From a virus (Duplodnaviria > Caudoviricetes): 33,442 nucleotides of DNA. Within the stretch, counting starts at the first letter, position 1; each line of letters starts with the position of its first letter. The stretch spans positions 1 to 33,442 of the IMG/VR virus record IMGVR_UViG_3300020045_014567. One strand, given 5' to 3'. The notes under the pieces are model-generated. The model did not search any database and had not been told where the DNA came from. It saw nothing but the letters and a program-made list of their open reading frames with translations. Below are positions 5,129 to 33,308 of this stretch, piece after piece. The position numbers and the translations under genes were made by a program.

Positions 5129-5290
5129 TTAAAAGGTATAATCTTTATCTATTTCTTTTTCTCTCTTTGTTTTCGGTTTACTTTCAAGAAACTCTTTGAC
5201 TTCTTGTGAAGTTTTATCGTAGAGTTGTTTCTTAGGTAGAGTTAACTTTCTCAATGCGATTAGTTTTCTAAACTTTTCTTGCTTGTTCAT
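5129..5290 (-). CDS. 53-aa basic protein (not in ORF track)
   Basis: MNKQEKFRKLIALRK...KDYTF, paralog of 1294..1452. Confidence 0.7.
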   Translation of the reverse strand: MNKQEKFRKLIALRKLTLPKKQLYDKTSQEVKEFLESKPKTKREKEIDKDYTF

Positions 5291-5597
5291 CTAGTCCAGT
5301 TAGTTTGCGAATTTTCTTTTCGAGAGTCTCGTAGTTCTTGAAGAATCTCATCTTCTGATCTCGAGGGATCACATCTCTAATACTATTGAAATATTCTTCG
5401 TTCAGCATTTTAAGTTTTCGAGCATACTCTGAAGTCTTACCTTTGATCCCGAAAGGCTTCATATATTCATCGAAATCTAACCGAATTGTGTCACTTACAT
5501 GTTGAAGGAGAAAGATTGCCCTCTCGTGCTTGTTTAATACTTCTTGATCGAATCCTTTCTTCTCAAGAGCTTCAATTTGTTGATCGTTTAGTGCCAT
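5268..5597 (-). CDS. Hypothetical protein, paralog of 990..1316
   Basis: Start reassigned to MALNDQQ at 5597 by paralog alignment. Confidence 0.8.
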   Translation of the reverse strand: MALNDQQIEALEKKGFDQEVLNKHERAIFLLQHVSDTIRLDFDEYMKPFGIKGKTSEYARKLKMLNEEYFNSIRDVIPRDQKMRFFKNYETLEKKIRKLTGLDEQARKV

Positions 5598-5598
5598 C

Positions 5599-6063
5599 CT
5601 ATTTGCAATTTCTATATTTATCGTAGCAACATTTCTTATACTTCTTTTCGCTTCCACATGGACATTTTTCGTTTCTTCCAACATATCTGTAATGAAGATC
5701 GTATTCTTGCTGCTTCTCTTTGAATTGAGCTACTTGACGACTATATTCAACTTGATGATTTTCATCTATTTCTCGTTGACCTGCGTCGTCTTCTATTACG
5801 CGAATATTGTCGCCTACGTCAGTGAATAATTCTGATAACATATCTCTCGGCTTTATGAACTTCAAGTAATCACCATAACGTCTGAGTTGAGCGTTTTTGT
5901 AGCGTTGACGTTGTTCTTGTATCTTTTCAATAGGGATTTCGGAAAGTTTGTATTCTTTAGTGATAGTTCTGCAAATTGTACAAGATCCTTCTTCTCCTCG
6001 ATACTGAACAGTGAACTCTTGACATTTAGAGCACCAGAAGCGACTATATTCGATCGTTGGCAT
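5599..6063 (-). CDS. Zn-ribbon plus C-terminal SEC-C motif protein
   Basis: CSKC...CTIC and VGRNEKCPCGSEKKYKKCC. Confidence 0.8.
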   Translation of the reverse strand: MPTIEYSRFWCSKCQEFTVQYRGEEGSCTICRTITKEYKLSEIPIEKIQEQRQRYKNAQLRRYGDYLKFIKPRDMLSELFTDVGDNIRVIEDDAGQREIDENHQVEYSRQVAQFKEKQQEYDLHYRYVGRNEKCPCGSEKKYKKCCYDKYRNCK

Positions 6064-6066
6064 GAT

Positions 6067-6474
6067 TTATTTATTTAAGTATTCAATAAACCATCGAATT
6101 AGTTGTTTCCAGTATGGAACATAAGTTCCGTTTGCTTTCTGAATCTCTTTATAGATTTCTTTCCAATCGATTTTGAATCCAATATGTTTGTCGTCAATGT
6201 ATTTGTCGGCGTAAATCTTGCGTGAATCTATTCCTTTGTAAAAGGCTAAGTTCTCCGGATTTGATTTGTTGATTGCGTGGAATTTCACGTTATGTTTTTT
6301 CAGATGTTTCTCTGCAGCAGAACACTTAATTCCCGAACGACAAGTCCATATGATGATATAATGGCCTTCGTTATACAGTTTTGCGAGAGTCTCTATTGCT
6401 CCCTTTTTGAATCGTCCTATTCTTGGAAACTCGTTCTCAACGATGGTTCCGTCGAAGTCTACTGCTATAATCAT
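6067..6474 (-). CDS. HAD-superfamily hydrolase, copy 2
   Basis: DFDGT motif; same length as 579..986. Confidence 0.85.
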   Translation of the reverse strand: MIIAVDFDGTIVENEFPRIGRFKKGAIETLAKLYNEGHYIIIWTCRSGIKCSAAEKHLKKHNVKFHAINKSNPENLAFYKGIDSRKIYADKYIDDKHIGFKIDWKEIYKEIQKANGTYVPYWKQLIRWFIEYLNK

Positions 6475-12559: not shown

Positions 12560-12607
12560 AATATCGATTTTTATAAGTGAATAATATTGTTGTTTTAATT
12601 ATGTCCT

Positions 12608-12648
12608 AAAGATACCCCTACCCATAACACGAAGCAACAAACGTATGT
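12608..12648 (-). promoter_or_regulatory. Phage promoter motif copy 2
   Basis: Minus strand ACATACGTTTGTTGCT-N17-GTATCTTT. Confidence 0.7.
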
Positions 12649-12688
12649 GATATTTTTCACTTATAGGTGTCTTTTTAAGATCTATTAA

Positions 12689-14759: not shown

Positions 14760-14810
14760 AAGGCGATTGTTTTTATTAAGTGAGTTGTTATTGTTGTTCT
14801 AAGACGTCGG

Positions 14811-14851
14811 AAAGATACGACCTCTTTCTACAGTAAGCAACAAAAGTATGT
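14811..14851 (-). promoter_or_regulatory. Phage promoter motif copy 3
   Basis: Minus strand ACATACTTTTGTTGCT-N17-GTATCTTT. Confidence 0.7.
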
Positions 14852-14890
14852 TTTATTTTACCGAAAAGGTGAAAATAATTCTTAAACACA

Positions 14891-29249: not shown

Positions 29250-29894
29250 TTATTTTGTACGTGATTGATCGATCAATTGAAAGAATTCTTGACGTGTTCC
29301 AATCTCATTTGTGAAGAAATATCCAGACATTTGAGAAGTTTTCATAACGCTATCATGTTTGATCCCTCTGCATTTAACACAAGAATGTTGTGATTCGATA
29401 ACAACTACCACGCCGCGATTACCAACGCATAGTTCATCTACTTTATCGTGAATCTGTTTTGTTAGTGACTCTTGAATATTTGGGCGACGAGCGTACCAGT
29501 CAACAATTCGATTCAATTTACTTAATCCAAGCACTTGATCTGTTTTCTCTTTCCCTGGAATATACGCTACGTGTGCTACGCCCGAAAACCCCAAATTATG
29601 GTGACAACACATACTTACAACTGGAATATTTGTTTGGCAAATCAAACCTGAGTAACCTTCATCGTTAGGGAAAGTGGTAATTGGTGAAAGATCATTGATG
29701 CTACCAGCAATCAAATCGTTTACCCAAGCTTTTGCAACTCTGAAGGGAGTTCTGTCTGAATGTGGATCAGCTGCCCAATCAAATCCCATAGCTGTTAGGA
29801 ATCGACCATAATGAAGAGCTCCTTCTTCAATCATTTTTTGCTTCTCTTCCGAAGTTCTCGCGATACTGCCGTTTGCTTTTTTTATCAACTCCAT
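29250..29894 (-). CDS. folE: GTP cyclohydrolase I
   Basis: [34 protein letters not shown]. Confidence 0.93.
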
Positions 29895-29897
29895 TCT

Positions 29898-30143
29898 TTA
29901 AAATTTAAAAGGTTTCTTGGGAGCTTTCTTGCCCTCAACTATTGGTGCTTTTACACGTTTCTCTTTGATATACGCGACGATCTGAGCTACTAACTCATCA
30001 AAGCTTGATGCTTCGAATTTCTTTTTCTTCTGAAGGAGATATCCTCCCCAACCTTCGTCGTTTGGACTTAGAGTCATTGCTGCTCCTGAGGTTTCTTTTA
30101 CTACTTGACGGAGTTGTTCCGCTGTACTTAATTCTTTTGCCAT
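29898..30143 (-). CDS. Hypothetical protein
   Basis: 81-aa ORF in operon. Confidence 0.65.
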   Translation of the reverse strand: MAKELSTAEQLRQVVKETSGAAMTLSPNDEGWGGYLLQKKKKFEASSFDELVAQIVAYIKEKRVKAPIVEGKKAPKKPFKF

Positions 30144-30165
30144 TTTTATTTTTGTTTTGCTGCGA

Positions 30166-30831
30166 TTAAATATCTTTGAAAATTGAAGGAAGAATTGATT
30201 GCAATTCTTCTAATAAAGGTTTCATTAGCTCTACCATTTGAGGATGAGCTGCTGCTGAAGTACGTTGTTTGAAGATTGTTCTCCATTCGCGCATATTCGC
30301 TGTGACTACTATTTCTGTTTTCAATGAATTCGGAAGTACTGAGCGAGCTTGTTGAGCTTGCCAACCTTCTCTCAGTAATTGTAAGTAAGCTTGTCCACTT
30401 TCAGTAATTGAGTGGTACCATGCTTTGGTTGTCTCCTCGATTTGAAGGTAGTTGTGCTCATTTAATCTCTGAACAAGATCAATCTGCTCATTACTAATCC
30501 AAGGCGGAATAATGAAGGTGAGTTTATTGTTGAATTGATCTTTTGAGTAGTTGCAGTAGCGTGTACTCTCTTGAGAGAAAGACGCAATTCTGTGACGGAC
30601 TATTTCATGCGACACTCCTCTGTCACAAACGAACAACACTGAAAGAGATTGATGTTCGAGTACTGATTCGTGTCCACGCTTTATCAACATTTCGACGAAC
30701 TTGTTAGCGCTCTCATCTGTCATTTTCTCTTCACTCTTGTAGCATGTTCTACCTGCACGCTCGATATTTTGTAGAATTTTCGAACTGTCGATTTCAGACA
30801 GTATTTGATACGATGGTCTAATTAATTTCAT
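30166..30831 (-). CDS. thyX: Flavin-dependent thymidylate synthase
   Basis: GHESVLEH, RGVSHEIVRHR, SQESTRY, ARSVLP, NMREW. Confidence 0.95.
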   Translation of the reverse strand: MKLIRPSYQILSEIDSSKILQNIERAGRTCYKSEEKMTDESANKFVEMLIKRGHESVLEHQSLSVLFVCDRGVSHEIVRHRIASFSQESTRYCNYSKDQFNNKLTFIIPPWISNEQIDLVQRLNEHNYLQIEETTKAWYHSITESGQAYLQLLREGWQAQQARSVLPNSLKTEIVVTANMREWRTIFKQRTSAAAHPQMVELMKPLLEELQSILPSIFKDI

Positions 30832-30841
30832 TTTTACAATT

Positions 30842-31582
30842 TTATAAATATTTATATCCTATTTGATTAGCTTTGATTCGATTAGCAATCGTTGCAGAAT
30901 GTACACCTAACTCTTTAGCTGCTTTAGCTGAGCTTAAAAAAGATACGCCGTTTATTTCTACAGGTTTACTTGTTTTAGGCAAACAATCTATTCTCTCAGC
31001 TCTACGTTTGCAAATTTTCTTTCTTACTTCTTCAGAATGAGTTTTACCTAACATAGTCCCAGTTTTCCCTGCAGTACACTTTATACATACCTGAGCGCCG
31101 ATACTTTTCTTTTTACCGCATTTACATATAGATTGAGATTCCACAACTCCTCCTTTCCAATGACTGTTAGTTGATCCAGGATGACCATATTTCTTCTTTC
31201 TCTGTTCTTCACCCATTAACTCTCTTGTCCTTTTAACTTTGATTTGCCTGGTTTTGATAAACTCAGCTTTGTTGGGGTGATGAGAAATATTGTCTCCTCC
31301 CGAAGCCGACAAAGACATGTTTAAACATTGAGTGAAATCTAACGAATCGAGATATCTTTGTTCGATGACTTTAATCTCTTCGATCGAACATTCTTCAACC
31401 ATTTCAAAAGAGAGGTCGCTTTCTCCATATTTATTGTAAACACGTTGCAATTTTTGAGAATGATGTCGATTATTTTTAAGATCAGATAAATGCTGCTTCC
31501 ATCTCACTTCGATTCGAACTGAACTACCTAAGTAAAATTGATCTTTAGCTTTGCTTACTATCTTATAAATTCCACACCTCAT
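30842..31582 (-). CDS. GIY-YIG homing endonuclease, I-TevI-like, free-standing
   Basis: GIY...YLGSS, RWKQH, KLQR, CKCG...CIKC zinc finger, NUMOD3-like GKTHSEEVRKKI, C-terminal HTH. Confidence 0.9.
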   Translation of the reverse strand: MRCGIYKIVSKAKDQFYLGSSVRIEVRWKQHLSDLKNNRHHSQKLQRVYNKYGESDLSFEMVEECSIEEIKVIEQRYLDSLDFTQCLNMSLSASGGDNISHHPNKAEFIKTRQIKVKRTRELMGEEQRKKKYGHPGSTNSHWKGGVVESQSICKCGKKKSIGAQVCIKCTAGKTGTMLGKTHSEEVRKKICKRRAERIDCLPKTSKPVEINGVSFLSSAKAAKELGVHSATIANRIKANQIGYKYL

Positions 31583-31636
31583 TTAATAGGTTCCTTTCTC
31601 CTGGATTGTTTTTAACAATTCGATGTACTGTTTCAT
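31583..31636 (-). pseudogene. thyA: 5' remnant of thymidylate synthase ThyA (17 aa)
   Basis: MKQYIELLKTIQEKGTY-stop resembles the ThyA N-terminus (E. coli MKQYLELMQKVLDEGT); stop abuts the endonuclease ATG (TAAATG). Confidence 0.75.
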
Positions 31637-31644
31637 TGCGGTTT

Positions 31645-31944
31645 TTAATCGATTAGTTTTAAAATATCTTCTTTTGAGACTCTCATTGAAATGAGGAGTA
31701 GGGTGCAGTATCCAATAATGTCGCAAACATCATTTACTCGAGTTTCCTCCGAAGCTTGTACTCGTTTGAGTTTGTCGTCTAGTCTGATCTTGATTGAATC
31801 CTGACCTGAGAGTTTACTGAATGTGTTTGTTGGATTGATAGCGGCGTCGCCGTAGCGCTTGTTCTTTTCGAGAAGTAGCTCCTGCATTGCAGTAGTTACT
31901 TCCTTAATTCTGTCCTGGGTTGATTCAAACGATTTCTGTATCAT
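31645..31944 (-). CDS. Nucleotide-modification-associated domain 1 (DUF1599-like) protein
   Basis: LLEKNKRYGD, IRLDDKLKR, DIIGY. Confidence 0.7.
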   Translation of the reverse strand: MIQKSFESTQDRIKEVTTAMQELLLEKNKRYGDAAINPTNTFSKLSGQDSIKIRLDDKLKRVQASEETRVNDVCDIIGYCTLLLISMRVSKEDILKLID

Positions 31945-31946
31945 AA

Positions 31947-32714
31947 TTATACTCCTGTTTTTTTATCCCAAATTGTTACGTGTAAACGATCAGAAAATCT
32001 CACTCCTTCACGAATAGCCATTTCTGCTGCCATTTCTCGAGTTTTAGAGAGTTCTTCGCGACTTTCACCGCAAGGCATAAGTATAATCTGTTCTCTGCGA
32101 ATTAAACCTGGTTTCAAGAAGTCTAGTTCGATTTCTTCCCAGTCTGATTCTTCAGATACTACAAATTTAAAATATGAGTTATCGAGTTCGCTCATTTTTT
32201 TCAATACCTCAGGTTCGTAGCGAGCTACTTTTCTGTTTCCGGAATTTTCAAGTTTAGGAGAGTTGTTCCATTGATCAGTGATATTGATCATTCCTTCTGA
32301 AGGCATTAGTACACATTCGTTTTCAACTTCGATAAAAGGTTTGAATCCGTAGCTTTCAGCGAATTCAACGATAAATTTCAAAAGCTGAGTTTGCTGCCGT
32401 AAGGGGCTTCCGCCAGTGAGAACAAAATGAGCACCATTTCTCAGTTGCTGAATTAATCCGGCCTCTTCCATCATAGCGAAGAGCTCTTCGAAAGAGTAAG
32501 TGTTACCGTATCTCCATACTGAGACAGAGTCACAGAAAATACAATTTAATGTACAGTCTTTCAAACGTAAGAAAGCTGCTGGTACTCCTGAGCTAACGCC
32601 CTCTCCTTGCAATGTTTCGGAGAAGAATTCAGATACTTTTAGTGAGCGATAAGGATCGATCCCTTCCGCGTTTTTAACGCGCTTAGGATCTGCTTCGATT
32701 ATTTGTTTTGACAT
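31947..32714 (-). CDS. queE: 7-carboxy-7-deazaguanine synthase (radical SAM)
   Basis: TLQGEG, FLRL, CTLNCIFCD, LTGG, SPKL, FKFVV, RLH. Confidence 0.92.
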   Translation of the reverse strand: MSKQIIEADPKRVKNAEGIDPYRSLKVSEFFSETLQGEGVSSGVPAAFLRLKDCTLNCIFCDSVSVWRYGNTYSFEELFAMMEEAGLIQQLRNGAHFVLTGGSPLRQQTQLLKFIVEFAESYGFKPFIEVENECVLMPSEGMINITDQWNNSPKLENSGNRKVARYEPEVLKKMSELDNSYFKFVVSEESDWEEIELDFLKPGLIRREQIILMPCGESREELSKTREMAAEMAIREGVRFSDRLHVTIWDKKTGV

Positions 32715-32810: not shown

Positions 32811-33308
32811 TTAGTTATTTGGATTGTAGGTGTAGACTTTGCGGTCGTCGTACTCAAATTCACCTTTAGCTTCAAGATATTTCTTTAAATCCTCACCGTG
32901 AACAGATAGAAAAATCTCTTTCTCTTCAGGAGTTATTGATTCTTCAAAGCAATCTACCCAGCAATTAGGTGTTTCGTATAAGCGCACTTGATATAAAGTC
33001 AATCCCTCTATTGATGAAAACAATGCTTGCTGAGCTAAGAAAAGCTCTTTTGATAAATTCTCTGCAGTTGGATTACAATACTCACCTACACCACTCAAAC
33101 ACATGATCCATAATTTTGTATGAATTTCGCGAAGAACATCGATAAGCTTTGTGTCATGAGGATTTAATAATGTTCCATGATCCCAAAAATCATCCATCCA
33201 TTGGCATCCAATTCTCTTAATCTCTTTGAAGTCAATATTGTAACCTATCTCTTTAGTTGTTTCAAACTTGAATATAAGCTCTCCGAAATACCGATGGCCA
33301 TGATTCGA
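32811..33308 (-). pseudogene. queD: 6-carboxytetrahydropterin synthase, 5'-truncated
   Basis: The frame extends upstream of the listed Met through IDFKEIK to SNHGHRY, then meets TAA. Also DH, NPTAEN, YETPN. The start, first His and catalytic Cys are missing. Confidence 0.85.

Follow-up and report, generated by a model that had tools for sequence, protein, structure and literature searches.

A 33.4-kb stretch of viral DNA (the whole stretch that was analysed, hereafter the window) carries, where its best cultured relative has an intact thymidylate synthase gene (thyA), the first 17 codons of thyA, a free-standing I-TevI-like GIY-YIG endonuclease gene and thyX, whose predicted product is a non-homologous thymidylate synthase. 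Relatives of the window hold one of three alleles at this slot: intact thyA, thyX alone, or the cassette of stub, endonuclease and thyX. Pseudanabaena cyanophages repeat all three states, a recurrence new to this analysis. We consider it somewhat probable that the arrangement works as a homing cassette: it would cut thyA and put endonuclease plus thyX in its place. On a wider proposition our judgement is evenly balanced: that thyA-cutting endonucleases carrying thyX instead of an intron, and deleting their own target, form a recurring class of selfish elements that drives non-orthologous displacement through a cycle of thyA, cassette and thyX, with separate origins in Bacteroidota-type phages and in cyanophages.

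The thyA slot and its contents

On the minus strand, the slot reads in the order 99-aa gene, thyA stub, endonuclease, thyX and 81-aa gene (Table 1). The preliminary description had placed a TAAATG junction between the stub and a 246-aa open reading frame, with thyX 10 nt further on, and the coordinates agree; its label of Nmad1 for the 99-aa gene is not confirmed, as that gene has no Pfam match at E 0.01 and PHROG 1485 is a group of unknown function. There is one endonuclease at the slot, and the gene after thyX, which has no Pfam or PHROG match, is followed by folE. The RHRxxSxxQESTR motif (RHRx7S) is intact in the predicted ThyX.

Table 1. Features at the thyA slot of the window
Feature	Coordinates	Strand	Remarks
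99-aa conserved gene, left flank	31645..31944	-	83% aa identity to the same-place L001 gene; PHROG 1485
thyA 5' stub, 17 codons then TAA in place of Lys18	31583..31636	-	17/17 to ThyA P0130; 11/17 to syntenic MA9V-3 ThyA
Free-standing I-TevI-like GIY-YIG endonuclease, 246 aa, no intron	30842..31582	-	Nuclease domain, CxC-CxxC zinc finger, NUMOD3, HTH
10-nt spacer, too short for a ribozyme core	30832..30841	-	No Rfam match
thyX, flavin-dependent thymidylate synthase, 221 aa	30166..30831	-	Pfam Thy1 (PF02511) 1e-48; 79% to L001 thyX
Possible thyA 3' remnant, K-Q-K-stop	30146..30157	-	In spacer between thyX and 81-aa gene
Family-specific 81-aa gene, right flank	29898..30143	-	Follows thyA in MA9V-3, thyX in L001, a ThyA-like tail in X2

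The stub translates as MKQYIELLKTIQEKGTY followed by a stop. Against a profile built from the first 17 residues of each of 120 ThyA proteins (the best 120 of 364 matches to the MA9V-3 ThyA query) it scores 49.7 bits, versus 3.3 bits for the runner-up among the 27,801 six-frame 17-mers of the window, a separation that excludes a chance peptide. The earlier claim that this open reading frame is a ThyA N-terminus is further borne out by ThyA P0130 (409 aa), which begins with all 17 stub residues. Position 18 is Lys in all 120 of the ThyA proteins listed (best 120 of 364), where the stub has its stop. Judged by these comparisons, the stub is a true thyA start. No further thyA sequence was found by tblastn in the 33.4-kb window, as the preliminary description had also reported, nor does the window hold the rest of the gene in split or spliced form; the contig is no longer than the window and relatives have genomes of about 103 kb, so that a thyA may still lie elsewhere in this genome. 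A mobile group I intron of the td type was rejected: the 10-nt gap leaves no room for one, as already argued from the sequence, and there is no Rfam match, ribozyme core, flanking exon or second exon.

The K-Q-K-stop in the spacer after thyX may be the right-hand scar of thyA, since two of the 120 ThyA proteins (best 120 of 364), P0130 among them, end in KQK; the match counts for little, because it is short and A-rich. No significant hairpin lies over the endonuclease start (z -1.37). A search of viral contigs with a degenerate stub-plus-start pattern returned two matches, both unrelated (the end of a packaging-ATPase-like gene and a match on the opposite strand). Separately, ThyA relatives P0019, P0021 and P0110 are 521-593 aa long, which suggests large in-frame insertions.

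By Pfam, the surroundings of the slot comprise queD-, queE- and folE-like genes and recA. The slot is flanked by folE (29250-29894), the queE-like gene (31947-32714) and the queD-like gene (32811-33197), a set that suggests 7-deazaguanine DNA modification. Passages of PMC12774661 describe a GIY-YIG enzyme that requires G at its cut site, and an enzyme with this requirement would have to tolerate such modification.

Three alleles at one slot in two phage families

RecA and a 458-aa protein both point to Chryseobacterium phage MA9V-3 (103 kb) as the best cultured relative of the window; Bacteroides DAC phages are more distant. The MA9V-3 genome reads queE, a small gene, intact thyA, an 82-aa gene, folE and recA, and lacks thyX; an intact thyA thus stands at the slot ahead of the 82-aa gene and folE, as the preliminary description had predicted for relatives. 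The closest relative (L001/L002/L180, approximately 80% nucleotide identity) instead has the 99-aa gene, a 148-aa gene, thyX and an 80-aa gene, with stub, endonuclease and thyA all absent (85 kb, 82% complete). G001 (82% complete) has thyX and lacks thyA. There is no match to the endonuclease anywhere in G001, G002 or MA9V-3, and none at the slot in L001, MA9V-3 or the cyanophages Pam2 and PA-SR01. At fourfold sites the window's thyX differs from that of the closest relative by 0.34, with five neighbouring genes at 0.33-0.57; its divergence is not below that of the adjacent 81-aa gene, and thyX can therefore stay at the slot without the endonuclease. By this measure, thyX is old at the slot in the window's family.

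Synteny searches were carried out from several genes. The 81-aa gene recovered two viral loci, no genome loci and one metagenome locus (the metagenome scan covering 34 of 64 parts), all from the same relative. Only the two known relatives were syntenic among 17 folE loci, none of the other 15 listed being so, and two were syntenic among the matches listed for 11 loci of the upstream gene (the end of L005, and L006, set aside). An endonuclease directly before thyX was not seen in any of the 37 listed of 62 thyX loci. The approximately 148-aa gene (L001 5750-6196) is an optional gene before the thy slot, missing in the window and without a PHROG match; it has two start types (MTTLEIV and MNKLEI), and runs X1-X5 show loose ends at 31643-31645.

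The second family comes from the two loci in which a related endonuclease is linked to thyX, L204 and L215, both of which group with Pseudanabaena cyanophages. In the cultured phage Pam2, ybiA precedes a gene for an intact 308-aa ThyA (PF00303, 6.5e-37), and thyX is absent. In L204, ybiA is followed by a 17-codon stub, 53 nt, a 246-aa endonuclease and thyX; the stub (410-463) is identical at 14 of 17 positions to the start of Pam2 ThyA, codon 18 has gone from CAA to TAA, and homology to Pam2 picks up again at the thyA stop. L215 carries a decayed stub, an endonuclease of the same 246 aa, and thyX. PA-SR01, also cultured, has thyX alone and no thyA. The earlier suggestion to look for the stub/GIY-YIG/thyX order elsewhere is thereby answered by one clear and one decayed instance. 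The earlier reading as a whole stands in its comparative predictions, and none of the findings it had named as refuting it turned up; what it omits is the endonuclease-free thyX allele found in both families. Both the window stub (31583-31636) and the L204 stub run for 17 codons before stopping at codon 18, by coincidence or constraint.

The cyanophage thyX is only 22% identical to that of the window, from which it follows that the endonuclease-thyX pairing arose twice. In free trees, the window's enzyme is not joined with those of L204 and L215; an AU test did not reject a single clade of the three thyX-linked endonucleases (p 0.37). The case for two independent origins is made from the thyX genes paired with the enzymes, from the stubs and from the phage families.

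We examined 6 of 18 listed sequencing runs, from three studies; none has half of the window's words, and none of those listed is with certainty an RNA dataset. In wastewater run X2, a gap-free 1387-nt contig (depth 67) spans 30233-31612 with 11 differences (99% identity), covering thyX, the endonuclease and half of the stub, which rules out an assembly artefact. A loose end before the 81-aa gene in this run decodes by hand to L-S-T-G-L-I-K-stop, the ending of 7 of the 120 ThyA relatives (best 120 of 364). The match of a 488-nt contig from X2 (depth 152) to the window covers just the 17 stub codons, with five differences (90% identity); the contig's upstream letters, hand-decoded as F-N-Q-F-A-N-N-Y-stop, resemble the end of the 148-aa gene. 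The 488-nt and cassette contigs overlap by 30 nt; the same overlap occurs in three other contig pairs of X2, so that the fork would fall at the endonuclease ATG. We infer, from contig ends and not from reads, that the two contigs are neighbours in the assembly graph, with a second branch, itself unseen, that is probably thyA. If the fork holds, the 99%-identical cassette would stand behind two upstream haplotypes, starting at the same codon, and codon 18 in X2 may still be Lys, fusing stub to enzyme. The same contig ends would point to mobility of the cassette between backgrounds.

In run X1, contig depth, a rough measure, is 47-116 for thyX and 4.5-11.6 for the endonuclease. One of its contigs (702 nt, depth 47) joins the 99-aa gene to thyX via about 480 other bases, and is an endonuclease-free thyX allele. 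Run X5 has no cover over the endonuclease and bears neither way on its presence.

Lineage and divergence of the endonuclease

The window's endonuclease matches the Pfam GIY-YIG family (PF01541) above cut-off, and I-TevI_DNA-bd and NUMOD3 below it. It is 32% identical to T4 I-TevI across residues 1-246, and its three matches in the PDB are, by sequence, all I-TevI domains, with 1I3J aligned to residues 131-245. Residues Y6, Y17, R27, H31, H40, E74, N88, C153, C155, C166 and C169 are invariant across seven aligned sequences including T4 I-TevI; we take Y6, Y17, R27, H40, E74 and N88 to be the catalytic residues. The predicted structure has a mean pLDDT of 69.6, with both end domains confident, the linker weak and the C-terminal HTH at about 90. 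Linker, zinc finger, minor-groove helix and HTH are present in the order of I-TevI, and with full-length identity and all four Cys kept, the preliminary description of an I-TevI-like, colinear enzyme with zinc finger and HTH is upheld.

Its lineage is linked to thyA. Among the viral loci of endonuclease relatives, thyA lies in or beside 34 of the closest 36, and thyX in the other 2; in the remaining 44 of 80, thyA occurs once and thyX never (the 80 are the best of 573 from a scan that covered 18 of 64 parts, and include some duplicates). At genome loci, 20 of 79 have thyA within 3 kb, including all of the top 14, and one of the 79 has an unrelated thyX one gene away. All five hand-picked cultured-phage matches, chosen from 60 rows, are thyA-linked. 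In a tree of 61 rows (drawn up leaving out L105, which is short, L112, L129, L131, L152 and most short matches) the window's enzyme falls in a 30-row clade with support 95/96, of which 27 rows are thyA-linked. The kinship to I-TevI and thyA proposed earlier thus extends to membership in a thyA-linked lineage.

Within this lineage the window's enzyme stands apart: it departs at 14 of 50 conserved columns, versus 1-12 in 35 thyA-linked relatives (12 in T4 I-TevI), and N175G and F177M, before the NUMOD3 motif, are among its departures. By this count, it is the most diverged of the thyA-linked relatives compared, which could reflect decay or a change of target. In Pam2 and PA-SR01, more distantly related full-length enzymes are encoded approximately 11 kb and 41 kb away from the thy gene, so that the architecture as such has no fixed bond to thyA. 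When the T4 site was used for a nucleotide scan, which barely discriminates, the score was 26/39 in MA9V-3 thyA versus a best of 23/39 in the window.

Several arrangements recur around these relatives. Free-standing I-TevI-like forms outnumber intron forms among the top viral matches, and L185, L188-L196, L203, L208, L209 and L232 carry free-standing genes convergent with an intact opposite-strand thyA. In L202 (3001-5873), a near-complete thyA has two tandem I-TevI-like endonucleases converging on it, one frameshift-split and the other shorter; between them lies a partial thyA match on the opposite strand. In Deinococcus (L109 and L110/L114), closely related endonucleases are intron-borne within thyA in two strains, and another strain has a free-standing one after an intact thyA.

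Proposed mechanism, alternatives and known systems

From these observations we infer a target, an activity, a drive and an order of events. The enzyme would likely cut a conserved target region of intact thyA in co-infecting relatives, and repair from the shared flanks would copy endonuclease and thyX into the cut genome. Having lost the target stretch of thyA, the cassette would itself escape cutting, and it would be viable with ThyX as the likely source of dTMP. At its left edge, marked by the stub, the stub likely forms the last homology used in repair, and in the window it probably also sets translation of the enzyme. Its proposed role as a translational coupler fits the window, where TAA abuts ATG, but is not general, given the 53-nt gap in L204. 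Were the endonuclease lost later, thyX would remain by itself, completing a cycle from thyA to cassette to thyX; the stub and thyX both begin ATGAAA, so that a short-homology deletion could remove the endonuclease. A direct swap of thyX for thyA yields the same thyX-alone product. Homing endonucleases follow a cycle of gain, decay and loss, and the slower action of ThyX compared with ThyA could allow thyA to come back. Beside the divergence of the enzyme and the relatives encoded far from the thy gene, two further points count against the cassette reading: thyX without the endonuclease is common (L001/L002/L180 and X1), and ordinary recombination likewise shuffles phage modules.

The strongest alternative, which we rate as unlikely, is one in which a thyA already followed by a free-standing or intron endonuclease acquired thyX by illegitimate recombination, the redundant thyA was lost, and the enzyme persists as a non-driving relic while ordinary recombination shuffles the alleles. 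Its starting point is a common one, as an intact thyA with an I-TevI-like endonuclease directly after it recurs among 17 inspected loci (in Kenya-K36 the two are joined by an ATGA overlap). The divergence of the window's enzyme also fits a relic, as does a thyX that is abundant on its own and about as old as neighbouring genes. Against a relic, the open reading frame is full length and gap-free in X2, with catalytic residues and zinc ligands all kept, and a second family has the same order, both open reading frames still being 246 aa although the L215 stub has decayed. Moreover, such an origin would be compatible with present-day drive.

Less probable still, and in our view improbable, is a switched target: in relatives that lack the endonuclease, the enzyme would cut either thyX or a flanking gene, and would spread itself alone, the stub being a start signal left over from an older location at thyA. 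Free-standing T4 enzymes do cut the gene adjoining their own (passages of PMC2988022). Endonuclease-free thyX alleles are available as recipients, the DNA-binding columns differ, and the AU test admits one clade of thyX-linked enzymes. However, with thyX partners 22% identical and enzymes unjoined in free trees, one common thyX target is unlikely, and the stub tracks living thyA (17/17 to P0130, and a shared X2 contig) as if thyA genomes were the recipients.

We hold it very improbable that the enzyme acts by interference without conversion, cutting competitor or host thyA and lowering yield, with thyX as self-protection and allele exchange incidental. Intron endonucleases do serve as weapons between phages, and the anatomy and lineage speak for this reading as they do for the cassette; against it, the flanks are syntenic on either side and the X2 fork lies at the stub, both of which fit conversion among close relatives better. 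Hardly credible is a split thyA, with the stub as exon 1 or first piece and the remainder outside a contig that holds 33 kb of a probably 100-kb genome, since there is no intron sequence in the 10-nt gap (no Rfam match), the related introns interrupt a 264-aa ThyA around codons 166-174 and not at 17, a complete thyX is present, and homology between L204 and Pam2 restarts at the thyA stop codon, as in plain replacement.

Free-standing endonuclease donors in T4 resist their own cutting through target polymorphism. The homing cassette as proposed here would differ from the donors SegF, SegG and MobE, which have a homologous target allele: if thyA is the target, the cassette lacks it and an analogous enzyme travels along. 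In other respects the cassette resembles these T4 systems of intronless homing and marker exclusion, in that the gene is intergenic and its start abuts the upstream stop (PMC2988022, in part), and the endonuclease is an optional gene between conserved genes, absent in relatives. According to passages of the same source, the cut made by a free-standing endonuclease lies hundreds to thousands of bases away from its gene, and the interval is co-converted, features of SegF, SegG and MobE that we propose for the window's cassette.

The enzyme itself is like I-TevI of the T4 td intron and its isoschizomer I-BmoI, colinear in GIY-YIG, zinc finger, NUMOD3 and HTH and 245-246 aa in length; passages of PMC12774661 report that both of these cut thymidylate synthase genes. 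Unlike I-TevI in td, the window's enzyme has no intron, and thyA is deleted rather than interrupted; td function is restored by splicing, whereas in the window thyA function is replaced by a non-homologous enzyme, the predicted ThyX. HEG islands offer a further comparison: Barth, Dunham and Seed (PMC10055350, in the passages available) propose that endonucleases mobilise essential cargo and that essential-gene fragments serve as recombination substrates. An HEG island, as described there, has two flanking endonucleases and homologous cargo, and the window's cassette has a single endonuclease; the word "thymidylate" is absent from the main text of that paper, and its passages describe no swap of analogous enzymes. 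The cassette is neither a mobile intron nor an HEG island, and resembles intronless homing minus the resistant homologous copy.

At the level of the locus, the slot is like two known cases in which unrelated isofunctional genes are exchanged at a fixed position. One is in situ DNA polymerase swapping in tailed phages, whose mechanism is called "enigmatic" (PMC11348598, in part); the other is ThyA/ThyX exchange (Stern et al., PMC2826268, in part), a standard case of displacement by a non-homologous gene. The word "endonuclease" occurs 0 times in the main texts of these two papers, whose passages propose no drive mechanism, and the literature covered (few subscription journals, with supplements outside its scope) holds no description of an endonuclease-thyX cassette replacing thyA. 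If true, the cassette reading would explain same-place swaps and spread without fitness gain, and would add a new route to a carrier-harmless endonuclease beside introns, inteins and resistant alleles. The wider proposition of a recurring class would offer a general way in which phages could exchange unrelated genes of the same function in place.

Elsewhere in the window, a gene pair coding for a 135-aa MIIAVDFDG protein and its neighbour occurs in two similar versions, on opposite strands about 5 kb apart (5268-6474 and 579-1316). The intergenic stretches 12587-12664 and 14791-14859 both match one stretch of approximately 75 nt in relative L012, and may be a repeated promoter or regulatory element.
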